Positions 1-64,000 of a DNA stretch of 64,000 nt are shown in pieces; within the stretch, counting starts at the first letter, position 1, and every line of letters starts with the position of its first letter. The DNA lies in NCBI GenBank assembly GCA_025352125.1, contig JANXTZ010000044.1, forward strand, positions 148,345 through 212,344, in the 5' to 3' direction. Below the pieces are notes generated by a model. That model did no database searches. It was not told the origin of the DNA and worked only from the letters and a program-made list of their open reading frames with translations. A program made the translations under genes and the position numbers. Source of the DNA: Deinococcales bacterium. Lineage in GTDB: Bacteria; Deinococcota; Deinococci; Deinococcales; JAAFIG01.

Positions 1-751
1 AGGGACTGTCCTGGGTGATCGGATGCACCACCGTCCAGGACAAATTGAAAAACGCAACTTTTTGCCGCTCGAGTTTTAACTGGTAAAACTTGCGAACTTG
101 AGCACCCTTGATGTTCTCAAACCAGGAAAGTGTGACCAGGGCTTCGATGTCAAGCACTTCGCTTTGTAAACCATTCACCACCCGAATCATCCAACCCATG
201 CCATTTTGGTACGGCGCAAACAACATATTCTTGGAAAACAAAATTCGGGTCATCGGTTTGGAGAATCTGGCAAACAACAATCCTGTCGCCAATGCCACAG
301 CCAACAAACCCACAAAAGCCTCGATGGTCGCCACAATGTTCGCCGCAAGGCTGGCAGGCGCAACATGTCCATAACCAATCGTGGACAGCGTTTGGACACT
401 AAAGAAAAAACCGCGCCAAAACCGATTCTCGAGCACCAGATTTGAACCCGCTTGAAGTGCATCTGCCCCACAAAACCAGTACAGACTTGCGAAGAACAGG
501 TTGATCAAAATAAACGTGGCTGCCAAAAAACCAAAAAACAAGGCAGGCTGCAAGGTGATCAACCCGTAAAAAATATTCTGACTCGAGAGCCACCCCAAGC
601 CCAAACGCCTGGTGTTAAATGAACCGTCCGAATTGACGAACCTGGCAGTGCTGCGTTCTGCCGCCACCCGCCCAATGCCAAGGTCTTCGTTGGTATCGCT
701 GGCTCGAGATTCTGATTCGGTGATCTTGCTCGAGGAATTGGTGTCTGTCAT
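1..751 (-). CDS. Inward-rectifier-type K+ channel (KirBac-like); N-terminus complete, C-terminus runs off the window start
   Basis: Own translation of the minus strand from ATG (751-749): MTDTNSSSKITESE... It has two TM helices flanking a pore helix with selectivity filter TIGYG, then a beta-rich cytoplasmic domain (LFAPYQNGMGWMIRVVNGLQSEVLDIEALV...). No stop codon occurs before position 1, so it is absent from the supplied ORF track. Confidence 0.85.
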   Translation of the reverse strand, partial: MTDTNSSSKITESESRASDTNEDLGIGRVAAERSTARFVNSDGSFNTRRLGLGWLSSQNIFYGLITLQPALFFGFLAATFILINLFFASLYWFCGADALQAGSNLVLENRFWRGFFFSVQTLSTIGYGHVAPASLAANIVATIEAFVGLLAVALATGLLFARFSKPMTRILFSKNMLFAPYQNGMGWMIRVVNGLQSEVLDIEALVTLSWFENIKGAQVRKFYQLKLERQKVAFFNLSWTVVHPITQDSP

Positions 752-856
752 GGGTTCAGAATACGACAACCATCTAGTTCAAACTCGAGCGACATTCCAA
801 TTCAAAAATTCAGCTCCAGATTATCCCGTGACAGATTTGAGATTTGCCCAACGAGA

Positions 857-1366
857 ATGAGCACACATGTTATGCTCGAGATGCTTTACAAATTAATTGC
901 TTCAAGAGGAGCACGCATGGCAGATGTTATCATCCAGGTATCCAAGGACGGCAAGCACCTGGTCACGGGCGACGGCAGAACCATCTACCGTTTTGTCCCC
1001 ATGAAATCCGACCCCGAGCATTTGTACATCCCCTGGGGCGGAAATTTTCCACCGTACCTGCTCGAGTTTATTGCCACCTGGAGTCCGTTGATTGGTGTTC
1101 CCAAAGCTGGTAACGGTGTGAAACAAGAAAACCTGAGCGACTTTGACCGCGATGGTCCGCCCGACGAGGGTTTAACGCAAATCAGTTACCGTGGTTGGTG
1201 GTTGTATTTTTACCCAACCGCCGCACCAGATTCGATCCATGAGGTTCCAAAATTGTTCCAACTGGTGTCACCAAGCATTGCCCCGCAACGGGTAGGAATG
1301 TCAATTGTTGGTGCAGATGATCCAGATGACGTTGGCGGTCCACCTTACATTTTTGGTGGTCCTTGA
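857..1366 (+). CDS. Hypothetical protein (possible alternative start at 917, MADVIIQ...)
   Basis: 169-aa ORF with normal composition and no recognisable motif. It overlaps the STAND gene tail-to-tail by 22 nt. Confidence 0.45.
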   Translation: MSTHVMLEMLYKLIASRGARMADVIIQVSKDGKHLVTGDGRTIYRFVPMKSDPEHLYIPWGGNFPPYLLEFIATWSPLIGVPKAGNGVKQENLSDFDRDGPPDEGLTQISYRGWWLYFYPTAAPDSIHEVPKLFQLVSPSIAPQRVGMSIVGADDPDDVGGPPYIFGGP

Positions 1367-4128
1367 TTTTCATAAATATTTGACAATAGGATTTCACTTA
1401 CTAAATCTTGAATTAATTGTTCAGAAACAAATTCTCTAGTCGCTTTTTCTGAAAAAGAGAGATTTAATTGATTTTGAATCATTTGAATCTCTCTCTTTTG
1501 AGAAACTTGAAGTAAAGGATAACTTAAAATAGCTTTTATTATTTTTGCTGATTTCTCAGTATCTCCCACTAAGCCTTTTAGGTATGCAAAAAAAATTAAC
1601 GTATCTATTTTTTGAGTAATATGAGGTAAGTTTTTTGCTTCAAACAAAGATTTAAATAAGTATTTTTCTGCAAACAAAAATTGTTTACGTTTAATTTCAA
1701 TACAACCTAGCATTAGATAAGCACCGCAAGTAACTTCAAAAATTGATTGATCTTTTAATACATTAAGTGTAAGATTTGCAAAATACTCTGACTCTTCATA
1801 GTCTTGTAAATAGTATAAGCCTATGCTCAAATTATGATAATAATAAGGTATCGCCATTTTTTGTAAGCTTGTTTTTGATATCAAATCTAAACCAATCTTT
1901 AATGATTCACATATTTTTTTGTAATTTGGATTTAGTAAAACAGAGTATAGAATGCCTGAAAAATTTAAACGAGCTAAAATTTCCGTACTATAATCTTTTA
2001 CTCTTGACGAATTTAATATTATTTCACTATAATAAGTTATAGCCTTAGTAGTATTTCCTCTTTCGGATTCTAGAATCGCTAAATTGCTTAAACAAGTTAT
2101 TTCTCGAGCTTTATCATCATGTTTTCTAATTAACATAAGCGCGTTTTCGTAAAATTGAATTGCTAATGTATACTCAGCTACCGTTGCTGCGATAGAACCA
2201 AGTATATTTAATGCTTTAGAGAGCGTAATTTCATTTAAACTTCCAACTTTGGATGCCAAACTTTTAGCTTGTATTGCATTGTTTCGAGCTTCTGTGATTT
2301 TACCCAATCTAAATTGTAACCAAGCTGCACCGACTAACATGGGAGCCAATGCAAGTGATGGTGCACCGTAATTCTCGAGTGCGGTAATTGTGGTTTCAAA
2401 CCAACTCAAGCCTTCGCCAAATCTTGCATTTTGATCGAAAAACACCACAATGTCTTGAACTTTCTCGAGCCTTGCAGCTTGATTGTTTTGAATCGCGTGC
2501 GACCATGCGGCGCGAATGTTCTCGAGTTCGGTTTCGATGTTGCGCATGGCGTTCGCGGCTTCAGACCCACGAATTTTGGCGGTGTCTCGCTCGAGTCTGG
2601 TCAGGTAATAATCTTGGTGGCGTTCAAAACTGCCCGCAAAATCGGGAAGCTCGAGCAGTTTTTCAAGCGTGAATTGGTACAGAAGCGGGTGAATGCCGAA
2701 ACGATTTGTCGCGTCGCGTTGCACCAAACTTTTGTCGCTCAGGTTTGCCAAGGTCTGCAATTTGGTGGCGTTGATTGCCCCAACGGCTTCTCGGGTTGCG
2801 CCACCCCTGAACACGGCAAGTTGCGCCAGGGCGTGTTGCTCGAGGGTGGAGAGTATCTTCCAGGAATGCTCGAACACGGCGCGGATGCTGCGGTGACGTT
2901 CGGGCGTGTCGCGCAATGTGTTGTCGAGCAAGTCAAGGTTATCCGCCAAATCTTGACGGAGTTCGGATAGGCTCAAGGCGCGTAAAAGGGGCACGGCAAG
3001 TTCGATGGCAAGCGGAAAACCGTGCACGAGTTTGCAAATCTCGAGCGCATCGGCACGGTCTTCAAAAGTTTGGATTTGCCTTCCAATTCTGTTCGCACGG
3101 TCTATAAACAACTCGAGCGCGGCATCTTGATCGGACCCTGCACCCAGACCCTCGAGTGGCGTGATCCATTCGCCGTGCAAATTCAGGCGTTCGCGGGAGG
3201 TCACGATCAGGCGCAAATTCGGGCAACGCTCGAGCAGCAGGGTCAGGTGAAAACCGTGTTCGGTCAGGTGCTCGAAGTTGTCGAGCACCAACAAGATTTG
3301 ACGTTGCCCAATGCCTTCCATGATTTGCTCAAAGACTGGCGCGTCGGGTTTTAAATTGATTTTAAAAACTTGCACGATTCGTGACAGCAGCGCTTCCAAG
3401 TCATTGATCGCCTCGAGCATGACCATCAAGACACCATCTTTAAAAAGCTCGAATTGCAAACTTTGCCGTGCCGTCTCGAGCGCCAGACGGGTTTTGCCCA
3501 CACCGCCAGGTCCAACCAGCGTCACCAGTCTGGCTTCCTCTTGCAGCAACTCGAGCACGTGCGCAGACTCTCGGGCGCGTCCAACAAAACTGGTCAAGCT
3601 CTGCGAGAGGTTGTTCGGAATGACCAACGGCTTTAAAGTCTCGAGGTTGAGGCTTTCGAGTTTGGCAATGCGCTGCAACCAAGCTGACTCGAGGTTTTCA
3701 AAGCCAATGATGTTCCGTGCCGCCTCGAGATGCTGACTTACCGCAAGCTGCTCAACCGCCCGTTCTGCCAGCGTCAAGTGCGCCTCTATAATGCCTCGAG
3801 CCAAATACGCTCGCATGGTTTCAATCCACTCGAGCAACTCTGGGTGAACCTCGGGAATGTCCAGATTCTCGAGGAACGGCGCAGTATAAAGTTCGACCGC
3901 CCGTTCCAAATTTTGATGCTCGAGCGCAAACAAAACCTCTGCTGCATCGCAATCCACAGCCGCTTTCAACCTCGAGCCAGAACCCCCAAACGCCGTTGGC
4001 ACAATTTGTCGCACACGGTTGATCGTGCTGCGCAAACTGCCCGCCGCGTCACTGGCATTCGGGAAGAACAACTCGCGCAAATGATCGCGGGTTTGCTCAC
4101 CCTCGAGCGCCACATACGCCAGCAACAC
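1345..4128 (-). CDS. STAND NTPase regulator: SARP-type wHTH/BTAD + NB-ARC P-loop ATPase + C-terminal TPR array
   Basis: The N-terminus LVLLAYVALEGEQTRDHLRELFFP...LRSTINRVRQ and ELYTAPFLENL match the SARP/BTAD pattern. Walker A is LVGPGGVGKTRLA. The long C-terminal region is helical TPR-like repeats. The frame stays open upstream to ~4236 and encodes LKVLGNLHLEPFGFAQAKP, but with no ATG/GTG/TTG, so the true start is uncertain. Confidence 0.8.
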   Translation of the reverse strand: MLLAYVALEGEQTRDHLRELFFPNASDAAGSLRSTINRVRQIVPTAFGGSGSRLKAAVDCDAAEVLFALEHQNLERAVELYTAPFLENLDIPEVHPELLEWIETMRAYLARGIIEAHLTLAERAVEQLAVSQHLEAARNIIGFENLESAWLQRIAKLESLNLETLKPLVIPNNLSQSLTSFVGRARESAHVLELLQEEARLVTLVGPGGVGKTRLALETARQSLQFELFKDGVLMVMLEAINDLEALLSRIVQVFKINLKPDAPVFEQIMEGIGQRQILLVLDNFEHLTEHGFHLTLLLERCPNLRLIVTSRERLNLHGEWITPLEGLGAGSDQDAALELFIDRANRIGRQIQTFEDRADALEICKLVHGFPLAIELAVPLLRALSLSELRQDLADNLDLLDNTLRDTPERHRSIRAVFEHSWKILSTLEQHALAQLAVFRGGATREAVGAINATKLQTLANLSDKSLVQRDATNRFGIHPLLYQFTLEKLLELPDFAGSFERHQDYYLTRLERDTAKIRGSEAANAMRNIETELENIRAAWSHAIQNNQAARLEKVQDIVVFFDQNARFGEGLSWFETTITALENYGAPSLALAPMLVGAAWLQFRLGKITEARNNAIQAKSLASKVGSLNEITLSKALNILGSIAATVAEYTLAIQFYENALMLIRKHDDKAREITCLSNLAILESERGNTTKAITYYSEIILNSSRVKDYSTEILARLNFSGILYSVLLNPNYKKICESLKIGLDLISKTSLQKMAIPYYYHNLSIGLYYLQDYEESEYFANLTLNVLKDQSIFEVTCGAYLMLGCIEIKRKQFLFAEKYLFKSLFEAKNLPHITQKIDTLIFFAYLKGLVGDTEKSAKIIKAILSYPLLQVSQKREIQMIQNQLNLSFSEKATREFVSEQLIQDLVSEILLSNIYENQGPPKM

Positions 4129-4408
4129 CAGCGGCTTGGCTTGAGCAAACCCAAACGGTTCGAGGTGTAAATTCCCCAGTACCTTTAAGCGCGGTAAAGT
4201 ATTGTTTTCTCGAGAAGGCGTTTTAATGCACTCAGTTTACCTCGAGATGAACTGAATGTTGTCAACTGCGTGAAGAATTAAGAAATTCGAGCTTTGAAAT
4301 TGCTGGGGATTCTGGCATTCCAAAACAAATTGGATTTTTGGTCACTCGAGCCTCGCTTGTCGCCACACAAAACAGAACCAAAGCTGGGGATGAGAGGGAG
4401 CAGGTGGT

Positions 4409-4443
4409 GATTATTTCACTCGAGCATCTCGAGTGAAATAATC
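4409..4443. promoter_or_regulatory. Perfect 16-bp inverted repeat with 3-nt loop (GATTATTTCACTCGAG cat CTCGAGTGAAATAATC), 15 nt upstream of the HAD start codon
   Basis: Read directly. The arms are exact reverse complements and each contains a CTCGAG. It lies in the divergent STAND/HAD intergenic region. Operator or 5-prime UTR hairpin; function unknown. Confidence 0.4.
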
Positions 4444-4457
4444 GGTACACTGAACAC

Positions 4458-5231
4458 GTGATTAAAGCCGTTTTATTCGACCTCGATGAAACCCTGATTC
4501 TTGACGAAGCCGTGTCGCTTCACGCGTTTCAAATGGTGGCGCTCAGTGTGACCCGAGATGCAAGCAAAGCCGCACAACTTGCGCACGCGGCGGAACAACA
4601 TGCAAAACGATTGTGGCAAACCCTGCCAGTTCCCGCACTCGAGTACGCCGCGCAAATTGGTCACAGTGCGCTCGAGGGCTTGTGGGCGGTGTACGACCCG
4701 AAGCTCGAGTTTGAGGTTTTACTCGAGGCGCACATTGTTGATTACCGTTTTGAAACCTGGAATGCGGCGCTTGTCGATTGCGGTTTGAAGGCGGATGCTC
4801 GAGGGTTAGAAAAATTGTGGCGAGGTTTGCGTGCCAGGTATCCGCTTTATCCAGGCGCGGACGAGTTGCTGGTATATTTAAAACCAAATTACAAACTTGG
4901 CATCGTCACGAACGGCGTGGCTTGTTTGCAACGCCAGAAATGGCATGGTTGCGGACTCGAGCCGTGGTTTGATGCGGTGGCGATTTCTGGAGAGCTTGGT
5001 ATTGGTAAACCCAATCCAGCGATTTTTGAATGGATTGCAGGTGAGTTAAAAGTGCCGCTCGAGACTTGCGTCGTGGTTGGTGACAATGCTGACCGCGATG
5101 TTCAGGGCGGCATCAACGCAGGAATCAAAACCGTCTGGATTGATCGCGGCTTCAAACCGCGCACGGCAATTGCCACGCTCGAGGTCAAACAATTGCTCGA
5201 GATGCTGCCCTGGCTCGAGGCGCAAACCTGA
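4458..5231 (+). CDS. HAD-superfamily hydrolase (subfamily IA-like)
   Basis: GTG start. Motif I is VLFDLDETL. Also IVTNG, GKPNP and the motif IV region VVGDNADRDVQG. Confidence 0.85.
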   Translation: MIKAVLFDLDETLILDEAVSLHAFQMVALSVTRDASKAAQLAHAAEQHAKRLWQTLPVPALEYAAQIGHSALEGLWAVYDPKLEFEVLLEAHIVDYRFETWNAALVDCGLKADARGLEKLWRGLRARYPLYPGADELLVYLKPNYKLGIVTNGVACLQRQKWHGCGLEPWFDAVAISGELGIGKPNPAIFEWIAGELKVPLETCVVVGDNADRDVQGGINAGIKTVWIDRGFKPRTAIATLEVKQLLEMLPWLEAQT

Positions 5232-8950: not shown

Positions 8951-9142
8951 GCGCCTATAGCTCAATGGTTAGAGCACCAATCTTCTTGACCATAAAACGT
9001 ACCTGTCTTGATCTTGATCCCAAACATGCACCTGATGGGCGGGATCGCTGACGGGCAAGGTCGCTTGTTGACCATAAAACGCACCTGACGGGCATGGTCG
9101 CTTCTAAATTGGCGCATACGGGTTCGAGTCCCGTTAGGCACA
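8951..9142 (+). tRNA. tRNA-Arg(TCT) gene interrupted by a 119-nt insert in the anticodon loop (possible pseudogene or intron-bearing gene)
   Basis: Hand fold after removing 8984-9102. Acceptor GCGCCTA/TAGGCAC has one C2-A71 mismatch. D arm GCTC-AATGGTTA-GAGC. Anticodon stem CCAAT/ATTGG with loop CT|TCTAA. Variable loop CGCAT. T arm ACGGG-TTCGAGT-CCCGT. Discriminator A. No encoded CCA. Confidence 0.7.
8984..9102 (+). repeat. Three copies of a ~37-nt hairpin repeat, one nested inside another, forming the tRNA insert
   Basis: Copy a is 8984-9005 plus 9050-9065 and is split by copy b, 9012-9049 (stem GATCCC/GGGATC). Copy c is 9066-9102 (stem GACCAT/ATGGTC). The consensus is TCTTG-stem-AAAACGCACCTGACGGGC-stem-CGCT. 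Confidence 0.8.
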
Positions 9143-9669: not shown

Positions 9670-10527
9670 TCACTGTTGCACATCCACCGAAACCTCAACC
9701 CCAATCGATTCCACGCCCCCACCGCGCCGCAACCCGCGCAAAGGCGGCACGTCGTCGTAATCACGTCCATGCCCAATTTTGATATGGGATTCATTGATGC
9801 GGGTGTTGTTGGTCGGGTCAAACCCAAGCCAGCCGTAACCTGGTAACAGGCACTCGAGCCACGCGTGGGTGGCTTCCGCGCCCACAAAATCCGCACCAGC
9901 ATAAACGTAACCACTGACATACCGCGCCGGAATGCCGCCAGATCGTGCAACCGCAAGCATGGCGTGGGCGTAATCCTGACAGACGCCAATGCCGCCTTGC
10001 ACAAACTCGAGCAGTGGCGTGTCCACTTTGGTGACACCAGATTGATACCTAAACCTCGAGTGCAAATGCGAGTTCAGACCGTCCAGGTAGGCGACATAAT
10101 CTTCTTCTGGCTCGAGTTGATGCCAGCCCAAAATGCTTGCCCAGTCAAACTCGAGCGGCACGCGAGGGCTGGTGGTCAGGTATTCGATGTTCGGTAACTT
10201 GTGCGCCTCGAGCACGCTGGCGGGTTGCCCTATCGGTTGGGTCATGGCGTGCGTGACCACCAGAGCTTTGGTTTCAATTCTCAAAACCGTGTGTTTTTCG
10301 AGCACGTGAAAGTGATGTAAGGTCGTGCCGTAATAATCCAGGTGCGAGTACACGGGAACGTTTGGCTCGAGTTGCAATCGAAACGACAGCACGGTCTGCC
10401 TCGAGTCTTCAATCGGTTGCAGGCGCAGTTCGTTAAACGAATCAAAGGCGGGTTCGGGGTAACGGTATTCGGTGATGTGATGGATGTTGGCTCGCACCAG
10501 AAGACCTCTAAGAATGGCAGAAAACAA
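9670..10527 (-). CDS. Transglutaminase-like cysteine protease family protein (N-terminal Bact_transglu_N + core)
   Basis: Core motif GVCQDYAHAMLAVARSGGIPARYVSGY with downstream His/Asp (THAWLE...FDPTN). Confidence 0.85.
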   Translation of the reverse strand: MFSAILRGLLVRANIHHITEYRYPEPAFDSFNELRLQPIEDSRQTVLSFRLQLEPNVPVYSHLDYYGTTLHHFHVLEKHTVLRIETKALVVTHAMTQPIGQPASVLEAHKLPNIEYLTTSPRVPLEFDWASILGWHQLEPEEDYVAYLDGLNSHLHSRFRYQSGVTKVDTPLLEFVQGGIGVCQDYAHAMLAVARSGGIPARYVSGYVYAGADFVGAEATHAWLECLLPGYGWLGFDPTNNTRINESHIKIGHGRDYDDVPPLRGLRRGGGVESIGVEVSVDVQQ

Positions 10528-10552
10528 AATTCAAGGTGATCATTTTTCGCAT

Positions 10553-11485
10553 TTAATTGCTAAAATACGCTTGGTACACCGCCGCACCCACCGCGTTAAA
10601 ATCGCCCAGCAGTTGCTCGAGGCTTGGGTTTTCAAGGTCCAAAATCTGGTCAATCTGCGCGTACTCGAGTTTTGCGGCGAGCCAGCCGACTTCGCGCAGG
10701 GCGTCGCGCTTGCCGCTGCGGTTGGCTTGGGCAATCACTTCCAGAGCGGCGCATAATGTTTCGGCGCAGTACCTGACGCTGCGCGGAAAGTCGGGTTCGA
10801 GCAGCAAAAATTCGGCGATGCCGCGAGGCTCGAGGCGGGCTTTGCTTTTGCGGTACGCCTCGTAGGCGCTGGCGGTTTTTAAAACTGCCATCCAACGGTG
10901 ATTCTCCAGCGCTTCGGCGACGGCTTTTTCGCCCGTGTTTTTGTAGCGCACTTGCAAGAGTCGTAACAGTGCATCGCCGCGCTCGAGGTGCTGACCCGCC
11001 TGCAAGAATTGCCAGCCCTGATCGCGGGGCAGCGTGGCGAAGGCAATCCCGAAAAACAGATGGCTGGCGTCGCGCACGGTCACGCAGTATTGGTGCAACT
11101 CGTCGTTGGGCAGAACGTGTTCGGTGCCAAAGCAAAGTTTGTGGTAGGCGCTGTTGATGCACTCCCACATCTCGCTCGAGATGCGGTCACGTAATGCTCG
11201 GGCGTTCTCGCGGGCTTGGGCAATGCAACTGCGGATGCTCGAGGGATTGCTGGGGTCGAACGCCAACCAGTTTGGGACATTTCTGGAATCGGCGCGGTAG
11301 CCTTTGGCTTTGAATTCTTCTTGTGAACCCGTGATTGCCAGCAGGGGAGACCATTGCTGCGTGAACAGCCCTGCACCCTCGAGCGTGGCGTAATAGTTCA
11401 CGTCCAGTAAGCGCGCAATGTTTTCGGCGCGTTCAATGTACCGCGCAATCCAGAATAAATTTTCGGCAACCCGAGAGAGCATCAA
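10553..11485 (-). CDS. Alpha-E domain protein (DUF403)
   Basis: [28 protein letters not shown] is the signature N-terminus of the alpha-E family. It overlaps the upstream ATP-grasp gene by 4 nt. Confidence 0.85.
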
Positions 11486-12996
11486 TCATCACCGCCAGTG
11501 TTTTGCGATTGACTTTGAGATTGGGATTGACTTTGCCCCGACTGTGTTTCCTCGAGCACCCAGGTGTCTTTGCTGCCGCCGCCCTGACTGGAATTGACGA
11601 CCAGGCTGCCGCGCTTTAATGCCACGCGGGTTAAACCGCCTGGGACAATCGTGATTTTTTTGCCGACCAGAATGTAGGGGCGCAAATCCACGTGGCAGGG
11701 TTCAAACGTTCCAGTGTCGGGGTAGTACGTCGGGTGTCTCGAGAGAGCGATGGTGGGTTGTCCGATGTAATTGCGCGGATTGGCTTCAACTTTTTTCATG
11801 AACTCGGTAATTTCTTTTTTGTTGGATGCCGTGCCGACCAACATGCCGTAGCCCCCAGCCTCGCCGACGGCTTTGATCACCAGTTTTTCGGGGTTGGACA
11901 GCATTTCTGCCAAGCCCTCTTTGTCCCAACCCAGGAGCGTTGGGACGTTGGGCAGGATCGGGCGCTCGGACAGGTAATACTCGATCATTTTTGGCACGTA
12001 GGCGTAAATTGCCTTGTCGTCTGCCACGCCCGCACCTATCGCGTTTGCCAGCGCCACGCGACCACTGCGGTATGCCTCGAGCAAGCCTGGCACGCCGAGG
12101 CTCGAGTTGGGATTGAACGCCAGCGGGTCGAGGTAATCGTCATCGACGCGGCGGTAAATCACATCCACCTGCTCGCGCCCAGACGTGGTGCGCATCCAAA
12201 CTTTGCCCTCAGTGACAAACAAATCCCTGCCCTCGACCAATTCCACCCCCATTTGCTGCGCCAGAAAAGCGTGCTCGAAATAGGCGCTGTTGTACATGCC
12301 AGGGGTCAGCACGACAATGGTTGGCTCCTCGACATCTCTGGGCGCGAGCGAGCGCAGCACCTCGAGCAGCACGGTGGTGTAATGCTGGACTGGGCGCACA
12401 CCCTGGTCTTTGAACAGACTCGGCAGGGTGCGGGTCATGGCGACGCGGTTTGCCAGCAGGTAACTGACGCCCGACGGGGTGCGCAGATTGTCCTCGAGCA
12501 CCATGTACGTGCCGTGCTCGTCTCGAATCAAATCTGAACCGACGACGTGGGTGTACAAGCCGTGCGGCAGGTTGACGCCGTGAACCTCGCGGCAAAAATG
12601 GCTGGCTGAAAGCACCAATTCCCTGGGGACAACGCCGTCGTTCAAAATCTCGCCCTTGCCGTAAACATCGCGCAAAAAGGCGTTCAGTGCCAGCACCCGC
12701 TGGGTCAAACCTTTCTCGAGGTGCGCCCATTCTTGCGCGGGAATGATGCGCGGCACAGGGTCAAACGGAAAGGTGCGTTCTGTCCCCTCGGTATCGCCGT
12801 AAACGGTAAAGGTAATGCCTTGATTGCGGAAGCTCAAGTCAGACAGCGTTCTTCGTCGTTCAAATTCTTTGCGCCCCAAAGCTTCAAGTCGCTCGAGCAC
12901 TTGTGCATAATGTGCGCGTGGTGCACCGTTGTCCTCGAACATTTCATCGAAAAACCCGTTTGGTGCGTAACCGTTAAAAACGCCCTCGTTCCCCAT
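11482..12996 (-). CDS. Circularly permuted ATP-grasp type 2 protein (DUF404/DUF407)
   Basis: The length and conserved blocks ([41 protein letters not shown]) fit this family. The unusual C-terminal tail is [19 protein letters not shown]. Confidence 0.8.
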
Positions 12997-13347
12997 GAAT
13001 AAGTATACAGAGTCGTTTCAAGCCTGACAAGTTTCTCGGGTTACGGTCTTCAAATGTATTAAGGGTTTTGTGATTGAAGTTTAGGCGTTCGATCAAAGCT
13101 TTTCTTGACATGTTCATTTTGGTGTTGATTTCTTGAGTTCCGATTCGATGTAAATCTGATTGTGTTTGGAACGAGGTTTCTGTTGACTGGTAAGCCTTAT
13201 GGGGTATTTGGCGAGGGTAAAAATACGTTTGACACCAGATTATTAAAGAAGTATTTTGTTGAAGACAAAACGATTTAAGCGTCTCGAACCAAACATCACC
13301 TCAAATCACAACGTCATGGTTTCTCGAGATTCAAAAGGAGATTGAGC

Positions 13348-15941: not shown

Positions 15942-16470
15942 TCGTGCTCGAGGCGTTCACACCCAGCCAGTGAAGCTCGAGTGTCCCTGAAGGCAGGGCT
16001 TGTAAAGTATACGGCGCAAAGACCGATTTTGGTTCAGTAACAGCTAAAGAAACACCTCCAGAATTCTCACGGTCTGCGACCACCAAGGTTGCCAGGCGCA
16101 AAATCGTTTCGGGTTCAAACCATGTTTCAAGCGACATTGCCGCGTCGCGCCCCGTCAGCAAGAAAATCTGGCTCTCAGGCTCGAGGTCATGTAGGCGCTC
16201 GAGGGTCTGGGCGGTGTAATGCGGACCTGGGAAGTCAAGCTCGAGGCGTGTGGCTTCCAAAAGCGGGTACTCGAGTGCGGCACGGCGCACCATCTCAAAA
16301 CGTTGCTCTGGCGTGGCTCTGGGGGTTTTGTGCGGCGGGTCGCCGGTGGGCGAGAGCAGTACCTTGTCCAGCCCGAGTTGATAGCCAAATTCGATGGCAG
16401 CCCCCAAATGACCCCAGTGAATCGGGTCGAAGCTGCCACCGTAAAAACCAATTTTACGCGTTTGGATCAA
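15844..16470 (-). CDS. nadD: Nicotinate-nucleotide adenylyltransferase
   Basis: GFYGGSFDPIHWGHL is the (T/H)xGH nucleotidyltransferase motif. ISSTIVR-like SSTIVRARI lies near the C-terminus. Confidence 0.9.
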   Translation of the reverse strand: MIQTRKIGFYGGSFDPIHWGHLGAAIEFGYQLGLDKVLLSPTGDPPHKTPRATPEQRFEMVRRAALEYPLLEATRLELDFPGPHYTAQTLERLHDLEPESQIFLLTGRDAAMSLETWFEPETILRLATLVVADRENSGGVSLAVTEPKSVFAPYTLQALPSGTLELHWLGVNASSTIVRARIAQGAPIEYLVPKSVNQFITKHQLYRN

Positions 16471-16508
16471 GTAACCCTCGTGCCGTCATGATACTCGAGC
16501 GCCCAGTC

Positions 16509-42924: not shown

Positions 42925-43001
42925 GTATGAAAGCTCGAGGTTCAACTCGTTGAAATAGATGTACAAGGAACAGCAATTGCTCTGGCTACCCTCATCCCCA
43001 G

Positions 43002-43063
43002 CCCTTCTCCCGTCTTGACCATAAAACGCACCTGCGGGCATGGTCGCAACATCGGGAGAAGGG
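43002..43063. repeat. Composite hairpin: 11-bp perfect stem (CCCTTCTCCCG/CGGGAGAAGGG) whose loop carries one copy of the 37-nt repeat (43013-43049)
   Basis: Read directly. The inner sequence TCTTGACCATAAAACGCACCTGCGGGCATGGTCGC matches the tRNA-insert copies. Confidence 0.8.
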
Positions 43064-43130
43064 AGCTTTGATCTTTTATAAGTGTGACTCGAAGTATTTC
43101 CTTCTTCCAAATATTACGCCCTCACAAAAA

Positions 43131-43757: not shown

Positions 43758-43767
43758 AGTTTACCCG

Positions 43768-45258: not shown

Positions 45259-45298
45259 GGCTTGGTTATAACCCAAATCTGAAATCAAAACCTCGAGT

Positions 45299-45910
45299 TT
45301 AAATCTTTTTGGTTTTCAACCAAGCTTTAAATTGCTTGATTTCTTTGCCTTGGTCGTTCACCACGTTCTGCCCAAACTTGCGCAACTCTGGGCGTGAAGC
45401 CCGTTTTACGGCGTCTTTGCCCATCGCCACGGCGTGTTCGTGGTGCGGAATCATGCCCTCGAGAAAACTGCGGTCTGTGGCGTGCGTCATGCCTGACATT
45501 GGGTTCATGCCAGCCATTGATGTGTCCATCATGGGTTTCATGTCGGCTTTCATCATCGCCATTTGCTTTGGGTCGGGCTTGGCGTTGTACCAAGATTTGA
45601 GCCAAGTGTTCATCAGTTTGATTTCTTTGTCCTGCGCGTTGATAATTTTTTGTGCCGCCATTTTGACATCTCGGTCTAGACAAGCCTTGATGCACATTTT
45701 TGACATGTCTACCGCCCCACGGTGATGCTCGATCATTTGAGACATCCAAGCGATGTCGTAGACTTTGCCTTTTAACTGAGCCAAGGCTTTTACCCCAGAG
45801 TCTCCCATCGTGCTCATCGTGCCCATGTTCATTTGAGCGCCGACAGAAACGGTCCATACAGCCGTGCCGAGTGTGCCAAAAAGTCCAAGTGTTAAGAATA
45901 ACTTTTTCAT
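45299..45910 (-). CDS. DUF305 family protein, secreted, Met-rich (copper-associated context)
   Basis: Signal peptide from the ATG at 45910 (MKKLFLTLGLFG...). Two DUF305 half-motifs, MIEHHRGAVDM and MIPHHEHAVAM. Met-rich stretch MAMMKADMKPMMDTSMAGMNPMSGM. Confidence 0.8.
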   Translation of the reverse strand: MKKLFLTLGLFGTLGTAVWTVSVGAQMNMGTMSTMGDSGVKALAQLKGKVYDIAWMSQMIEHHRGAVDMSKMCIKACLDRDVKMAAQKIINAQDKEIKLMNTWLKSWYNAKPDPKQMAMMKADMKPMMDTSMAGMNPMSGMTHATDRSFLEGMIPHHEHAVAMGKDAVKRASRPELRKFGQNVVNDQGKEIKQFKAWLKTKKI

Positions 45911-46023
45911 GTTTGAAACCTCGAGATCAGAAGTGTTGAAGTTCAGTTTTGACACTTCACCTTTGCAGTTGAGAATCATTTTATTCAAGTTACACCGACA
46001 GCCATTTTGCCCAGTCTTCTCCT

Positions 46024-48555
46024 TTAAACTTTTGCCAAACAGGTTTGCGTTGACGGGGTGACACGCTCGAGAATTGGTGCTTTGAAGCCACGAAGTCGCA
46101 GGGCGTTGGTCAGCACAAAGACGCTCGAGAAACCCATCGCCGCACCCGCCAGAACTGGACTGAGCAGCCAGCCGAAAATTGGATACAACGCACCCGCCGC
46201 CACTGGAATCAGCACGATGTTGTAAGCAAAAGCCCAGAATAAATTCAGTTTGATATTTGAGATGGTGGCTCGAGAGAGTGCCACCGCATTTGGAACGCCG
46301 CGTACATCGCCAGACATCAGAATCACGTCGGCGGTTTCGATGGCAACATCTGTGCCCGTGCCAATTGCCAGACCCACATCGGCTTGCGCCAGGGCGGGTG
46401 CGTCGTTGATGCCATCGCCGACAAAAGCGACTTTTATCCCGCCCGTTTGCAACTGCTTAATCGCGTTGGCTTTTCCGTCAGGCAGCACTTCGGCAAGAAC
46501 CTTGTCAATGCCAAGCTGCGCGGCTATCGCTCGAGCGGTGCGTTGATTGTCGCCTGTGATCATGACCACTTTGATGCCCATGTGCTGCAATGCCTCGAGT
46601 GCCAATTTTGAGCCGTCCTTGATCGGGTCTGCCACCGCCAGAATCGCGCTGAGTTTGCCGTTTACGGCAGCATAAAGCGGTGATTTACCCTGATCGCCCA
46701 AACGAATGGCGTCGCTCGAGAATCTATCAACACTCAAACCCAATTGGGTCATGAAACGGTCTGCGCCGATTTGTACAAGTTTTCCCAAAACTCGAGCCGA
46801 AACTCCAAATCCTGGACTTGCCTCAAAATCGGTTGCCGCCTCAAGCGTCACGCCCTTTTCCTTGGCAGAGTTGACAATCGCTTGCGCCATCGGGTGTTCG
46901 CTCAGGTTTTCGACGCTGGCAAGAAGGCGCAACAATTCCGTGTCTGCAATGTCGCTCGAGTTGATGAAATCCATCAATTCTGGCTTTCCCTTGGTCAGTG
47001 TGCCAGTTTTGTCCAGGGCAATCGTTTGAACGCCCTGCAACGCCTCGAGCGCGTCGCCCTTGCGGAACAGCACGCCCATCTCGGCGGCTTTGCCCGTACC
47101 GACCATGATGCTGGTTGGTGTCGCCAAGCCCATCGCGCAAGGACAGGCGATAATCAAGACCGCAACGGTGTTGACCACCGCGAAACCCAGGGCGTTGTTG
47201 CCCCCAAAAATCATCCAGAGGATAAACGTTAAGCTGGCAATTCCCAGCACAATTGGTGTGAAGACCGCCACGACCCGGTCCGCCAGCCCTTGAATCGGTG
47301 ATTTGCTGCCCTGCGCGGTTTCGACGAGTTTGATAATTTGTGCCAGCACCGTGTCCGCACCGACCGCCGTTGCCTTAAAAGTCAGTGCGCCCGTGGTGTT
47401 CAAGGTGCTGCCAACAACGCTCGAGCCAGCGTTTTTACTGACCGGAATCGGTTCGCCGGTAATCATGCTTTCATCAACGTAACTCGAGCCTGAAACCACC
47501 GTGCCGTCCACCGGAATTTTTTCGCCTGGGCGCACACTGACCAGATCGTTTGCCAGCACTTCATCGATTGGCAACTCGAGTTCAATACCGTTTCGCAGCA
47601 CCCGTGCGGTTTTGGCTTGCAAACCAATCAGTTTTTTCATGGCTTGACTGGTGCGCCCTTTGGCTATCGCCTCGAGGTACTTGCCCAGCAAAATTAAGGC
47701 GATCACCACGCCAGCCGCCTCGAAATAGACCGAGCGACCAGTCTCGGGAATTAATCCAGGCACAAACGTCTCGAGCAGCACCACCGCGCTGCTGTACCAG
47801 AAGGCGGCGCTCGTGCCGAGCATGACCAGAGAGTTCATGTCTGGACTGCCGGAAATGAGGGCTTTCCAGCCGTGGGTCAAGAAACGTCTGCCAGGACCAA
47901 AATAGACGGGTACAGCCAGTGCCAGCATCAGCCAATCCCAAACCCGCGTGGGCACAAGACCCTCCAAGAACATCATGGCGGGCATCCAGAGCATGGGGAT
48001 CATGGCGAGCAGCAAGAGCGGCACGCCAAACATTGTGGCAAAGATCAAATCACGCCTTAACACGGCAATCTCTGCCTCTCGAGCCTCCCGTTCAACGTCC
48101 GAGCGGTCTTTGCCAACTTGCGTTTTGAGCACGTCATAACCGGCGTCTTGAATGGCAGTTTTGAACTGTGTTGCGCTTGCACTTTCGGGAATGTATTGAA
48201 TGCTGGCACGTTCGGTGGCAAGGTTGACGGATGCGCTCAACACGCCAGGAACTTTGGTCAGCGCCTTCTCGACCCGAGTGACACAGGCGGCACAGGTCAT
48301 GCCCGTGACGCCCAACTCGAGATTGGCAACACGAGGCTCGTAACCAACCTCATGAATGTTCTCGAGAATTGCCGTTGGCGAAATCGCTTTGGAATCGTAA
48401 ACGACGGTGGCGCGTTCGGTGGCAAGGTTGACGGTGGCACTTTCAACGCCATTCAGTTTTTTTAAACCGCGTTCAACCCGTCCGACACAAGCCGCGCAAG
48501 TCATGCCGCCCACGCCAATCTCGAGGGTTGATTGTTGAATGTTTGGTTGAATCAT
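46024..48555 (-). CDS. copA: Copper-translocating P1B-type ATPase with two N-terminal HMA domains
   Basis: Two GMTCAACV motifs, [22 protein letters not shown]. Confidence 0.95.
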
Positions 48556-48559
48556 GTTG

Positions 48560-48577
48560 TATCCCCCCTGGGGGTTA
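48560..48577. promoter_or_regulatory. Candidate CsoR operator next to the copA start (TATCCCCC-ct-GGGGGTTA)
   Basis: G/C-tract pseudo-palindrome (7 of 8 arm positions complementary) of the kind bound by CsoR-family repressors, 5 nt from the copA ATG. Confidence 0.5.
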
Positions 48578-48750
48578 GGTCCAGGTGCAGCCTACTCAGA
48601 ATTGAATCTGGCGTCAAGTCATTAACACTACAACGTCATCAGATTTTAGGATTTTCTCGAGTTTATGATTGAATTTTTTGTTTGAACCTCGAGAATCGAT
48701 GATCGATTTCAACTTGACGAAAAAACCTCTCAGGATGTATTGTTGCCTCA

Positions 48751-48768
48751 TACCCCCATAAGGGGATA
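48751..48768. promoter_or_regulatory. Candidate CsoR operator upstream of copZ-csoR (TACCCCC-ataa-GGGGATA)
   Basis: A second G/C-tract pseudo-palindrome of the same design, just upstream of SD AGGAGG and the copZ ATG. Confidence 0.5.
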
Positions 48769-48782
48769 ACAGGAGGCAAGAC

Positions 48783-48992
48783 ATGAGTATTCAACTAAAC
48801 GTCAGCGGAATGACCTGCGGACATTGCGAAACTGCGGTCGCCAAAGCCTTAAAAGGCATTGAAGGCGTGCAAGCTGTTCAGGTTGACCTTAAAAACGGAA
48901 CTGCCAAAGTCGAAGGTCAGAATGTCAATACCCAAGCCCTGATCGCGGCTGTGATTGACGAAGGTTACGGCGCAAGCATCGCAGGGGCTTGA
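48783..48992 (+). CDS. copZ: Copper chaperone CopZ (HMA domain)
   Basis: GMTCGHCETAV metal-binding motif in a 69-aa protein. Confidence 0.9.
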   Translation: MSIQLNVSGMTCGHCETAVAKALKGIEGVQAVQVDLKNGTAKVEGQNVNTQALIAAVIDEGYGASIAGA

Positions 48993-49298
48993 ATGATTGA
49001 AGCCGTTGCTGAAACTGCTGAGCCAGCCTTATGTATGCCGCTCGAGTCGCGCAAACGAGCGATTCGCCGTCTTGCGATTGCCAAAGGGCATCTCGAGAGC
49101 ATCCAACGAATGCTCGAGAATCCTCATGTCTACTGCGTGGACGTGCTGCGGCAGATCAAAGCGGTTCAGGGAGCACTCGAGGGTGCGGGTGACGTTGTGC
49201 TGCGTGGTCATCTCGAGGCGCACGTTGCCACGGCAGCCCTGCGCGGCGACGCCACCGAGATGGTGGATGAGGTGATGGAAGCCATTCGGTTGCGCTAA
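48993..49298 (+). CDS. csoR: CsoR-family metal-sensing transcriptional repressor
   Basis: RLAIAKGHLESIQRMLEN..YCVDVLRQIKAVQGAL carries the Cys and His ligand pattern of the CsoR/RcnR family. Confidence 0.9.
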   Translation: MIEAVAETAEPALCMPLESRKRAIRRLAIAKGHLESIQRMLENPHVYCVDVLRQIKAVQGALEGAGDVVLRGHLEAHVATAALRGDATEMVDEVMEAIRLR

Positions 49299-49341
49299 AA
49301 GTATTGCCACAGAACATGGCACAATTGCTTTAAACCCTCAA

Positions 49342-50265
49342 TCAAGCCACCACTTCTTCCCGCTCGAGTTGCACGCTTTCCTCGCCCAAGACCTCTGCCA
49401 AACTTAGACCCCTGGCACGTTCAATGCGGGCAATGCGTTTTTGAAACTGTGAAACCGCAAAATTCACAAATTCATCCTGCTCGAGGTTGAACGGAATCTC
49501 GCCCCTGGCAGCGGTCAAGTCAAAGAGTTCATTGACCACCCCGATGGCGGGCACGAACAATTCGCCCATTCGGGATTCAATCGCCTCCCAAACTGGGTCG
49601 CCGTGTTCGGCAACCAACCTCGAGAGCAGGTACACGCCGTAAGCGATGTGGCGCGATTCGTCTTGCTTGAATTTTTGCATGGCGTAACGCATTCCTGGCA
49701 TGATCTGGTGGCGCTCGAGAATGTTGTGATACGCGTGATACCCCGTTTCGGCTAGCACACCTTCGACAATCATGTTGTACGTGACCGAAGCTTTTGCCAG
49801 CGCCACGGGGCTGGAATCGGTTTTCAAAGCCTCGAGCGACGTGTGCAATTCCTGGTAAAAAATGGTGTGGTAACTCGGCGTGTGAAACCTCGAGAGGTCA
49901 CCGTTGGCTTGCGCCACCTCGGTCATGAAACGTCCGAACGTCTCGAGGTGTTTGGCTTCCTCCCACAAGAAACTGGTCAGGAACATTTCCTCCTCGAGTT
50001 GCCCCTGGTTGGCAATCACCATGATTAGCGGCAGCAAATCGAGCGTCACGCTTTCCTCGCCCGCCTGGTACATCGCGGCAAGGTTCAAGAGCACTTCACG
50101 CTCGAGGTCGTTCAGTGCCGCCCAATCTTTAATATCCTGAGAAAAATCGATATCGCTTGGATTCCAGATGCCAAACTTTTTGGCTTTCTGCCAGAGCCGC
50201 ATCGGGAAGCTGGCATAATTCAGTTTGCGGGTGCTGGTGGTAAACGATTCTCGAGCGATGGTCAT
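49342..50265 (-). CDS. R2-like ligand-binding oxidase (ferritin-like, RNR-R2 fold)
   Basis: Start ATG at 50265 with SD AGGAGA. Di-metal ligand motifs: QAGEESV, EEAKHLETF, AETGYHAY, DESRHIAYG. Confidence 0.8.
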   Translation of the reverse strand: MTIARESFTTSTRKLNYASFPMRLWQKAKKFGIWNPSDIDFSQDIKDWAALNDLEREVLLNLAAMYQAGEESVTLDLLPLIMVIANQGQLEEEMFLTSFLWEEAKHLETFGRFMTEVAQANGDLSRFHTPSYHTIFYQELHTSLEALKTDSSPVALAKASVTYNMIVEGVLAETGYHAYHNILERHQIMPGMRYAMQKFKQDESRHIAYGVYLLSRLVAEHGDPVWEAIESRMGELFVPAIGVVNELFDLTAARGEIPFNLEQDEFVNFAVSQFQKRIARIERARGLSLAEVLGEESVQLEREEVVA

Positions 50266-62222: not shown

Positions 62223-62245
62223 GATGAATACTGGGTTTAAAAAAT

Positions 62246-63604
62246 TTACTCTTTGACGCCGCCCGAAAGTGAGCCAGAGACAAAGAATTGCTGGAACCCG
62301 TAAAAGAGCGCCACGATTGGCAAAGCGCCCAGCACCGCAGCCGCGCTGAACTTGCCGTACTCGGCGGTGAATTGCTGTGCGAAACTGCGAAGCCCCAAAC
62401 CGATGTTCCAATTGTCCACCCCTGCGGCAAGCAGAATATTTGCCAGGAAAAATTCGGCATACGTGCCGATGAATTGTTGCAAGAAGATGAACACCAGCAT
62501 CGGACCCGAAAGCGGCAGCACCACCCTGGTAAATGCCGTCCAACGGGTGCAACCGTCCACCAGGGCAGCTTCCTCGAGGCTGGGAGGCAGGCTTTCGACA
62601 TATCCCTTGTAAATCCAAGTGCCGTAGGCGATAGACCCACCCGAGTACGCCAGAATCAAACCTGCAAAACTGCCCAGCAAGCCGAGACGGTACATCAGGT
62701 CGTAAATCGCCACGGCTGCCAAGAACACTGGAAACATTTGCACAAAAATAAAGAACAGCAAGACCTGAAAGCGCCCCGGGAAACGAAGCCGTGCCATCGC
62801 ATAACCGACGGTGGTGGTCAGCATCACGGTCAAAACCCCCGTGATGGTTGAAATAATAAACGTGTTGCGCAACCACAGCAAAAACTTTGCCTCGAGGCTG
62901 CCATCGCCTGTAAATTGTGCAGGTCCGAGCGTGCCGAAAAACACCAGCAAGCCAATGGCTATCGCCCAGTAGGCTCGAGTTCGGTTCTGGTTGATGCTGG
63001 CATTGGTTTTGCCAGCGTTGGACTGCACCATAAACCACAGCGCCGCGATGCCCACAATGCCCAGTGCAAAGACCACCAGCCCCAGAATTTGCCAGGGCGC
63101 AATGACCACGCCCTTGAACAATGCCTCGTAATTGCTGAAGTCTTTGCCCTCGAGACTCGGTAAAACTTTGGCTTGCACGATCAGCGGTCCGGTGTCGCCA
63201 AGGCTGGCGTCGGTCAGGGTGTTGCGCGGGTCAAACGAGGCGCTGACCACAAAAATAATTGGGTACAGGGCAACCAAAATAAAAATCCAGAAGAACAGGT
63301 GTGTGAGCTGGTCGGACATGATCGCCCAGTAACTGATTTTACGCCCCTGCCGCGTGCGTTCGCCCCAAAGCTTACCGACATAAGAGGTCAAAAAAATCAA
63401 AATCACCGCACCCAGCAAACCCAGCAGCACGTTGCGCCCGCCATTTTCTGGATACATGACCGCAAACGAACGCGGCAACACCCTCGAGGCTAAATCTCGG
63501 ACGGTGATGACGGTGAACACCAGCAATGCCGCCCCCAAAGCCCAACCCACAATGGATTGCCACGAGAAGCCCGAGCCAGAATTTGTGCCAGAACCTGAAG
63601 TCAT
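62246..63604 (-). CDS. Carbohydrate ABC transporter permease (CUT1 family, MalG-like with long N-terminal region)
   Basis: EAA loop [23 protein letters not shown] and multiple TM helices. Confidence 0.85.
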
Positions 63605-64000
63605 TTTCGAGCCTCCTTAAAGACACCAGCGACACTGAAGTTGACCATGCTGATGCCGATGGTCAAAAAGGCAACCAGCACCGCAATGGCGCTTGCCATG
63701 CCACGGTCAATGCCGTTCAAAAAGGCGGTGTTGTAACCCCACGAGAGCAAGATGTCGGTGCTGTGCGCAGTTGGAAGCTGTCCAGCTTCGATGGGTTTAC
63801 CACCCGTAAGAAGGTAAATAATGCCAAAATTATTAAAGTTAAAGGCAAATGTGCCCAAAATAATTGGGGTGAACGCGGCTGTCAGCATTGGTAGCGTGAT
63901 AAAACGGGTTTGATTCCAACGGTTTGCACCATCAATTTCGGCGGCTTCGTACAGTTCATCTGGAATGGCTGACAACGCGCCGACGGTGGCGGTCATCATG
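63601..64000 (-). CDS. Carbohydrate ABC transporter permease (MalF-like), C-terminal part only; the gene continues beyond the window end
   Basis: EAA loop [24 protein letters not shown]. 4-nt overlap with the downstream permease. The frame is open to position 64000. Confidence 0.8.

Follow-up and report, generated by a model that had tools for sequence, protein, structure and literature searches.

What maintains a single hexanucleotide at one copy per 147 bp in an otherwise ordinary piece of bacterial chromosome? The question is raised by the palindrome CTCGAG in a 64,000 bp stretch of forward-strand DNA (positions 148,345-212,344 of contig JANXTZ010000044.1, assembly GCA_025352125.1), which will be called the window. 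The window has a G+C content (GC) of 51.9% and was assigned to uncultured Deinococcales by a scan based on lysS. With a codon-usage heuristic of our own 73 genes were called, and 87% of the window is coding. Pfam searches revealed ordinary chromosomal genes including argG, argH, pfk, lysS, greA and rplS, as well as genes for an aldehyde dehydrogenase, a copper ATPase with CsoR, ABC transporters, two-component regulators and an NB-ARC/TPR protein of the STAND type. An initial annotation of this DNA had likened CTCGAG to HIP1 (GCGATCGC), the iterated palindrome of cyanobacteria. The results described below show that CTCGAG is a true highly iterated palindrome, carried by an uncultured lineage of the Deinococcota.

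Abundance of CTCGAG in the window and in related lineages

The window contains 436 CTCGAG sites (6.8/kb). Base composition predicts ~17 sites, which corresponds to a 26-fold enrichment. In 100 shuffles preserving dinucleotide composition the word was found 11.0 ± 3.3 times (maximum 19; 40-fold), and an order-1 Markov model trained on the window with the sites masked predicted 7.0 copies (62-fold). The maximal-order Markov expectation was 362, a figure that is uninformative because the 5-mers consist of the sites themselves. CTCGAG is the commonest hexamer of the window by more than twofold, and the next nine hexamers all overlap it. The hand counts of the initial annotation, 46 sites in 1-5220 and 46 in 30001-35040, proved exact. 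Its claim of one site per ~110 bp was right about strong enrichment and somewhat too high as a density, because both sampled stretches are denser than average. An observed/expected ratio (O/E) near 1, which it had named as a ground for abandoning the claim, was not obtained; O/E lay far above 1.

The density is similar in coding (6.7/kb) and intergenic DNA (7.8/kb) and in genes of the plus (6.9/kb) and minus strand (6.6/kb), in agreement with what had been claimed from the hand scan. The first intergenic stretch listed in Table 1 holds five sites, which makes the enrichment independent of coding. When synonymous codons were shuffled within each gene, a procedure that preserves every protein sequence and the codon usage of each gene, 50 ± 6 sites were expected in coding DNA against the 372 observed (7.4-fold). 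This null is conservative, because the motif itself inflates codon usage. Shuffling of codon order gave 20 ± 4 coding sites. The two shuffles rule out an artefact of codon usage or amino-acid composition, and a null retaining both, another ground for withdrawal named in the initial annotation, did not reproduce the count.

The chance that the excess of CTCGAG is an artefact of any kind, whether it came from codon or amino-acid usage, from a dispersed repeat or the footprint of insertions, or from a contig that is chimeric or engineered, is virtually nil. What such an explanation can invoke is the example of high-GC viral contigs, which reach 4-6 CTCGAG/kb largely through a preference for the codons CTC and GAG, with O/E values of 1.3-3.9 relative to the codon null. 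In the window the excess persists in the null that preserves codons and amino acids, and the intergenic density is as high as the coding one. The flanks of the sites are unique and evolve at the background rate; a gap accompanies only one of 94 site differences between species (see below). The same trait was found in independent assemblies from other samples and several projects, which excludes a chimeric or engineered contig, a possibility that the initial annotation had also raised against itself.

The coding sites are read as CTC GAG in 247 cases, as xCT CGA Gxx in 49 and as xxC TCG AGx in 76. Thus 247 of the 318 Leu-Glu dipeptides (78%) are spelled CTCGAG. Leu-Glu is the most overrepresented dipeptide of the window (O/E 2.22), whereas Glu-Leu is not (1.03); therefore the pressure has altered protein sequences, not codon choice alone. 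Positions at which a site is synonymously permitted are occupied in 63% of cases overall, and in 78%, 36% and 57% of cases in the three frames. In an independent dense lineage CTCGAG spells 86% of the Leu-Glu dipeptides, and the O/E of Leu-Glu is 2.62.

Only the exact word is enriched. The 18 variants differing from CTCGAG at one position have 2-30 copies each (O/E 0.7-2.6); by position, O/E is 1.8-1.9 for changes of the outer bases, 0.7-2.6 for position 2/5 and 1.3-1.6 for the inner bases. The flanks are near background composition, with G at -1 and C at +1 in ~40% of the sites, and flanks extending the palindrome to 8 bp are underrepresented (80 observed, 120 expected). The most frequent 10-mer of the window has only 16 copies, therefore the word is not part of a dispersed repeat. 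A signal residing in the core TCGA was ruled out: TCGA outside CTCGAG is about as frequent as expected, and where 33 copies of TTCGAA and 15 of GTCGAC would be expected, there are 0 and 1, respectively.

Related lineages share the trait. Four contigs of metagenome-assembled genomes with LysS 94-95% identical to that of the window carry 7.3-7.5 sites/kb. At 69% LysS identity, L005 (GC 60%) has 5.6/kb and L067, a complete 5.1-Mb chromosome (GC 58%), has 4.3/kb. Four further lineages were found by chance while we followed a Type IIG enzyme: L190 (2.4/kb, GC 44%), L191 (2.2/kb), L192 (1.8/kb) and L195 (2.7/kb, GC 62%). The L195 contig adjoins dnaA and encodes an SSB with two OB folds, an arrangement typical of Deinococcota. 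A metagenome scan revealed a denser group of 13 contigs (122 kb, GC 60%) with 1179 sites (9.7/kb), two short contigs of which reach ~13.7 sites/kb. The nearest solved structure to the isoleucyl-tRNA synthetase (IleRS) of this group is the 1ILE chain, the Thermus thermophilus enzyme, and the genes of the group are 50-71% identical to Deinococcus loci. It also encodes a MutL of the endonuclease type. Relative to base composition, the enrichment in two lineages was ~26-fold in 143 kb and ~30-fold in 122 kb. The densities thus range from 1.8 to 13 sites/kb at GC contents of 44-62%; the trait is heritable, of varying strength between lineages and independent of GC content. In Deinococcus proper the word is avoided: more than 30 species have 0-3 sites per 21 kb against ~7 expected, and the pooled count is 40 against 201 expected (O/E ~0.2).

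Other palindromes have been purged from the window. About 20 palindromic hexamers are absent where 12-33 copies are expected; these include (expected number in brackets) TTCGAA (33), TCGCGA (26), GGCGCC (26), CCGCGG (24), CGGCCG (24), TGGCCA (22), CGATCG (20), ATGCAT (20), CTGCAG (17) and CAGCTG (17), as well as GACGTC. Pooled, the 63 palindromic hexamers other than CTCGAG have an O/E of 0.44. Among tetramers, GGCC has 2 copies against 279 expected and CCGG 50 against 266. In the dense lineage the purge is of the same kind (GGCGCC 0/96, CCGCGG 0/87, pooled O/E 0.32), and the sets of avoided words differ among related lineages. CTCGAG alone departs, and to an extreme degree, from a pattern that otherwise looks like the result of heavy restriction pressure on these genomes. 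The statement of the initial annotation that the word shows the opposite of restriction-site avoidance was therefore borne out, with a 40-fold enrichment beside some 20 palindromes at zero copies. Extreme palindrome avoidance was also seen in L254-L355 (the Ga01233xx group).

The coexistence of CTCGAG with the extreme avoidance of other palindromic hexamers and of GGCC would suit a self-marker of Chi-like or inverted restriction logic, in which a nuclease or defence system degrades or excludes DNA lacking CTCGAG every 100-200 bp. AT-rich islands, which are likely foreign, have no sites, and sister lineages are nearly site-free, so that the mark would be discriminating. We nevertheless consider this explanation very unlikely. 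It is pure conjecture, no such system is known, and no phage or mobile DNA of these hosts could be identified in which to look for mimicry or avoidance of the mark. Moreover, the occupancy of permitted positions reaches a plateau beyond ~30-45 bp from the next site, contrary to a rule of one site per interval.

Conservation, turnover and spacing of the sites

The window was compared with L001-L004, to which it is 85-89% identical in DNA sequence; the alignment covers window positions 30700-49350. Between 85% and 95% of the window sites are conserved in these species, and identity is 96-98% within the sites as compared with 86-89% outside. In sites read as Leu-Glu the synonymous third positions are 95-97% identical, as opposed to 73-75% in other codons and only 44-60% in CTC and GAG codons lying outside sites. 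Sites are held ~5-10 times more tightly than synonymous positions. In intergenic DNA 13 of 14 aligned sites are conserved at a per-base identity of 83-86%. All six positions are about equally constrained, and the constraint ends at the hexamer: at distances from 1-3 bp to more than 100 bp from a site, synonymous divergence shows no trend. Genome-wide, exactly these six palindromic bases are under a force equivalent to selection. This force saturates the available positions, alters proteins and is inherited by the clade at varying strength.

At greater evolutionary distance the positions of the sites are not retained. In lysS at ~70% DNA identity (69% amino-acid identity) only 5 of 18 site positions are shared; therefore positions turn over and sites arise independently. 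Since just one of the 94 site differences aligned with a gap, gains and losses occur by substitution and not by insertion. Together with the unique flanks and the 16 copies of the top 10-mer, this rules out a dispersed repeat, a miniature inverted-repeat transposable element or an insertion footprint.

Methylation-directed biased mismatch repair is a conceivable source of such substitutions. According to this explanation a methyltransferase and a Vsr-like or other methyl-directed activity would turn near-sites into sites, and the word would be functionless. A genome-wide, frame-independent enrichment is compatible with it, biased conversion would produce a selection-like force on the hexamer equally well, and the dense lineage encodes the endonuclease-type MutL mentioned above. 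Precedents are the well-established CCWGG/Vsr system of E. coli and the model that Elhai put forward for HIP1 (PMC4390886). We regard biased repair as unlikely, and the proposal of the initial annotation, a methyltransferase coupled to biased short-patch repair, found no support in the test that the annotation itself had suggested. The asymmetric depletion that it predicts is absent from the 18 one-off variants: the nine variant pairs have O/E values of 0.7-2.6, and the deamination products CTTGAG/CTCAAG are present in 31 copies against 23.6 expected (O/E 1.3). The equal constraint on all six positions also speaks against it. If sites guided mismatch repair, the mutation rate should be lower near them; no gradient was seen, and the flat synonymous divergence therefore gives no sign of locally better repair. 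Dcm/Vsr very short patch (VSP) repair at CCWGG in E. coli is indeed a route by which a methylated palindrome becomes overrepresented through biased repair. Its effect, however, is less than twofold and is accompanied by depletion of the T:G product word, whereas CTCGAG is enriched 40-60-fold and its product words are undepleted, so that the VSP signature is missing. Finally, Pfam revealed no methyltransferase or Vsr gene in the window, neither of the M.XhoI/M.PaeR7I-like nor of the Vsr type for which the initial annotation had suggested a search, and 462 kb of CTCGAG-rich DNA, probed for methyltransferases only, yielded no candidate.

The sites are not placed independently of each other. Neighbours less than 30 bp apart are underrepresented (37 observed, 81 expected; coefficient of variation of the spacing 0.88). 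Pair distances are depleted below ~50 bp and flat onward to 300 bp, a range in which no helical or other periodicity was seen in the window. The occupancy of synonymous potential sites rises with the distance to their closest neighbour, from 23% (within 15 bp) and 51% (15-30 bp) through ~64% (30-60 bp) to 75% (120-200 bp) and 91% (beyond 200 bp). In the independent dense lineage the corresponding values are 38% at 5-15 bp, 69% at 15-30 bp and ~78% beyond. The force on CTCGAG weakens when another site lies within ~30 bp.

The range of the interference, less than 30 bp, roughly matches the length of DNA covered by a bound protein. The interference might therefore reflect a structural or nucleoid signal, that is, an abundant hexamer-specific DNA-binding protein that compacts or organises the chromosome under weak selection per site. 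The strict confinement of conservation to the hexamer would fit such a protein, and the nucleoids of Deinococcota are, as is well established, unusually condensed. A role in nucleoid structure has been proposed for HIP1 (PMC5861425). We hold this explanation to be decidedly unlikely. No candidate protein is known, nor are nucleoid proteins with exact 6-bp palindromic specificity, and there is no helical or longer periodicity up to 300 bp, the window being too short for the 10-90 kb periodicity reported for HIP1 (Xu et al. 2018).

Candidate enzymes and other features of the loci

Several genes were considered as sources of a CTCGAG-specific activity. Next to lysS, L005 encodes a Type IIG enzyme of 1123 amino acids (PADLOC, 1155 bits; Pfam Type_ISP_C, N6_Mtase and Eco57I; Table 1). 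Its four closest homologues are all on CTCGAG-rich contigs. It was nevertheless rejected as the CTCGAG enzyme. More distant homologues lie on contigs devoid of CTCGAG, but these contigs avoid many palindromes, CTCGAG ranking 7th of 64; the solved relatives LlaGI, LlaBIII and DrdV read asymmetric sites, as does the family. We read the link between this enzyme and CTCGAG-rich contigs as shared ancestry, not specificity. The Type IIG/Type ISP-like family (~1090 amino acids) combines a PD-ExK nuclease, a gamma-class methyltransferase and a Type_ISP_C domain. It retains 52-64% full-length identity across several phyla (4231 proteins at E ≤ 1e-20), a degree of uniformity that is unusual for enzymes of which the specificity domains usually diverge. 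The L195 gene is broken into two pieces encoding 943 and 118 amino acids.

In L190 an alpha-class (D12-class) methyltransferase gene lies 6 bp downstream of polA, with a uracil-DNA glycosylase gene nearby. The enzyme is 57% identical to M.CbeI (PDB 7M6B), a GGCC-specific m4C enzyme, and on this identity it was ruled out as the CTCGAG enzyme. M.CbeI is an N4-cytosine methyltransferase (PMC8616854). The L190 enzyme would represent a solitary methyltransferase encoded in the same operon as DNA polymerase I.

A search of 5.8 billion proteins with M.TaqI, the query sequence of which was checked against the PDB, gave 120 listed matches that are 56-98% identical and come from Thermus, Anaerolineae and Armatimonadota; the matches listed are probably TCGA-type enzymes. 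A pair of AAA_5 and VWA genes in the window was considered as an McrBC-like system, an assignment that Pfam did not support.

Scans of viral contigs for phages of these hosts revealed no clear phage of the clade; most hits were chance matches or high-GC contigs with a codon-driven excess. The IMG/VR contigs of the latter type (L087/L143, L097, L160, L152, L237 and others) contain almost no CTGGAG. In L181, L187 and L240 the sites are in all frames, and these may be phages of related hosts.

The coordinates of the features are collected in Table 1. In the densest part of the window two sites, at 4419 and 4428, are only 9 bp apart. The longest stretch without a site is AT-rich, as are the longest such stretches in several other lineages. 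It probably consists of DNA that is newer or of foreign origin and in which sites have yet to arise, and the site-free AT-rich islands fit a slow accumulation of CTCGAG in resident DNA. The block lies in a STAND/Avs-like gene and resembles a recently exchanged sensor or C-terminal module.

Table 1. Positions of features in the window and in related lineages
Feature	Position	Strand	Remarks
Whole window	1-64000		436 single-copy CTCGAG sites; ordinary chromosomal segment; median spacing 116 bp
Intergenic stretch	375-856		5 sites: 428, 582, 703, 729, 784
Longest site-free stretch, 1042 bp	1061-2103		GC 33% (window 52%); 3' part (quarter) of NB-ARC/TPR gene 1345-4128 (-)
Densest part of the window	3401-4500		15 sites/kb; within NB-ARC/TPR gene 1345-4128 (-) and the spacer beyond
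tRNA gene with insertion	8951-9142	+	Rfam 45.7 bits
Intergenic or unassigned stretch	15942-16508		7 sites
Uma2-family gene	22579-23079	+	PF05685
973-bp stretch lacking a convincing gene	29805-30777		7 sites; open reading frame 29847-30854 without Pfam match
lysS	39794-41326	-	11 sites; used for finding relatives and for cross-species comparison of site positions
Ribosomal protein L19 gene	42074-42874	+	C-terminal extension
Type IIG enzyme gene	L005 11853-15224		
Type IIG enzyme genes	L190, L191, L192, L195 ~10001-13290		
polA and the methyltransferase gene downstream of it	L190 15907-19280		
Uma2-family gene	L191 14955-15509		PF05685
Uma2-family genes	L195 13322-13921, 14225-14713		PF05685
Comparable AT-rich site-free island	L003 6291-7486		
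Comparable AT-rich site-free island	L067 7647-8969		
Comparable AT-rich site-free island	L257 207-1527		
Comparable AT-rich site-free island	L266 6151-6884		

Genes for putative endonucleases of the Uma2 family recur in CTCGAG-rich loci, often next to toxin-antitoxin genes. Cyanobacteria, the other phylum known for iterated palindromes, have an expanded Uma2 family as well. Two further genes of the window have unusual features. A tRNA gene, missed by ARAGORN, is interrupted in its anticodon loop by an insert of 122 nt; once this is removed, the loop sequence is CTTCTAA, that of tRNA-Arg(UCU). The insert contains two copies of an internal direct repeat, TTGACCATAAAACG[T/C]ACCTG...GGTCGCTT, and no CTCGAG. 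It seems too short for a group I intron and may be an unusual small intron, a mobile insert or the mark of a disrupted gene. Ribosomal protein L19 has a C-terminal extension of ~115 amino acids with a match to the helix-hairpin-helix family HHH_5.

Known iterated words and the possible role of CTCGAG

The closest parallel is HIP1, which like CTCGAG is a short GC-rich palindrome hugely overrepresented throughout the genome, in all coding frames and in non-coding DNA. CTCGAG displays the properties by which HIP-type words are recognised, namely an over-representation of at least ~15-fold, frame-independent presence in coding and non-coding DNA and conservation across species. Site conservation above background in relatives is the argument for selection used by Xu et al. 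2018, and HIP1 sites are conserved between genomes (PMC5861425). In both cases the word is a lineage-wide trait of varying strength, and the hosts avoid many other palindromes as well. HIP sequences are found together with their cognate methyltransferases (PMC4390886), natural transformation becomes up to more than 100-fold more efficient when HIP1 is methylated (bioRxiv 10.1101/2024.09.10.611283) and the abundance of HIP1 correlates with DNA-transfer genes (bioRxiv 10.64898/2026.06.24.733823).

There are differences as well. CTCGAG is a hexamer of Deinococcota, whereas HIP1 is an octamer (core CGATCG) of cyanobacteria; HIP1 proper was ruled out by the word itself, by the absence of CGATCG from the window and by the organism, a member of the Deinococcales. 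The density of HIP1 and the alternate HIPs is roughly one per kb (PMC4390886; PMC5861425), that of CTCGAG 7-13/kb, about ten times as high. CTCGAG is near saturation and has visibly reshaped proteins, its one-off variants are not clearly biased to the outer positions as is typical of HIPs (Elhai 2015), and for its putative cognate methyltransferase no gene was found in 462 kb. The initial annotation was thus right to call the word a HIP1 analogue denser than HIP1 (6.8/kb in the window against ~1/kb; PMC4390886). It had also stated that no described system has this motif at such density, and our full-text literature searches gave no mention of CTCGAG as an iterated or overrepresented genomic word of bacteria.

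The same exact 6-bp palindrome is the recognition sequence of XhoI/PaeR7I-type systems. The genomes of restriction-modification hosts normally avoid the target, whereas here it is enriched 40-fold. The genome of mollivirus sibericum, ~650 kb in length, has ~1.3 CTCGAG/kb. These 850 sites are the densest documented set of methylated CTCGAG (PMC7253447). The same study describes solitary CTCGAG methyltransferases of prokaryotic origin of both the N6-methyladenine (m6A) and the N4-methylcytosine (m4C) type, the mollivirus enzyme ml_216 being m6A and the pandoravirus enzymes m4C methyltransferases (PMC7253447).

Our preferred reading, to which we assign a probability of roughly 0.4, is that methylated CTCGAG would serve as a self-tag giving the DNA of close relatives a transmission advantage in uptake or recombination. 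A resident protein, acting as a dimer, would recognise the palindrome. The most plausible candidate is a DNA methyltransferase specific for CTCGAG and not coupled to harmful cleavage of the cognate site. Readers of the dimeric or methyltransferase type would be expected to recognise an exact 6-bp palindrome flanked by uninformative sequence. DNA bearing (methylated) CTCGAG would be favoured in transmission because uptake or recombination would prefer the DNA of close relatives, and the outcome would be a molecular drive resembling that of uptake sequences, possibly reinforced by weak selection per site. Once a site exists, a further one less than ~30 bp away would bring no additional benefit, which would explain the short-range interference.

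The uptake sequences of Neisseria (DNA uptake sequences, DUS) and Pasteurellaceae (uptake signal sequences, USS) share several properties with CTCGAG: an overrepresented word, short-range spacing more even than chance, a measurable effect on peptide composition and a lineage-specific word absent from sister taxa. DUS and USS spread by transmission bias, and the same is proposed here for CTCGAG. The likeness is incomplete, and this and the following points weigh against the self-tag. DUS and USS are 9-12 nt long, asymmetric, present at ~1/kb and often paired in terminators, and Neisseria DUS have an identified receptor. CTCGAG does not conform to this type, being a 6-bp palindrome at 7-13/kb with flanks that carry little information, and we know of no 6-mer uptake sequence of such density. 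Neither the window nor the 462 kb of CTCGAG-rich DNA yielded a CTCGAG-specific uptake receptor. Pfam revealed no methyltransferase, restriction enzyme, Vsr or XhoI-type gene in the window. Profile, motif and homology searches of the 462 kb, in which the methyltransferase probes were M.TaqI, the Type IIG family profile and the D12-class enzyme of L190 and which did not include a probe for Vsr, revealed no methyltransferase beyond the two known ones; the 462 kb cover a few percent of the genomes in question, too little to infer absence. The protein that reads CTCGAG is thus hypothetical. Methylation is invisible in the sequence data, and sequence statistics do not separate selection, biased conversion and biased uptake.

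A further difficulty comes from the comparison of sites with their homologues. Among 93 pairs of a site and a non-site homologue, 19 differ at three or more of the six positions, as opposed to 8.2% of control hexamers (binomial p = 2e-4, the pairs being not fully independent), and two-step differences are scarce. Homologues differing from CTCGAG at 3-5 positions include ATCACT, CAAAAG and AAGCCG. This excess, which is not predicted by a simple single-step drive, hints at conversion events spanning several nucleotides or at very fast stepwise fixation.

A related proposal goes further than the self-tag. CTCGAG could be an independently evolved and much denser genome-identity tag, a restriction-type word that a group of Deinococcota would have converted from a liability to a mark. 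The tag fills ~2/3 of the permissible positions while almost all other palindromes are deleted, and it would be served by a dedicated reader system of its own and not by copied HIP1 machinery. The system might perhaps also write the mark, because 20% of the site differences involve at least three of the six bases. It could act in the uptake or recombination of relatives' DNA, in the sorting of fragments during repair or in discrimination between self and foreign DNA. We consider this proposal doubtful.

In our reading CTCGAG is an iterated palindrome of the HIP1 kind whose motif and phylum are new and whose density is about ten times that of HIP1. The pressure behind it can be measured from sequence alone: ~2/3 of the synonymous opportunities are used and Leu-Glu is raised 2.2-2.6-fold, so that it overrides codon choice and some protein sequence. 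With densities of 1.8-13/kb among related lineages and avoidance of the word in Deinococcus, the clade provides material for gene searches by phylogenetic profile. Since CTCGAG is the site of the commercial enzyme XhoI, its methylation status can be checked by a simple digest or by re-analysis of long reads. A dense lineage-specific word is also a strong signal for metagenome binning and host assignment. To our knowledge HIP1 has been unexplained for thirty years and is known only from cyanobacteria. With a second, independent case the function of iterated palindromes can be studied in a natural replicate.

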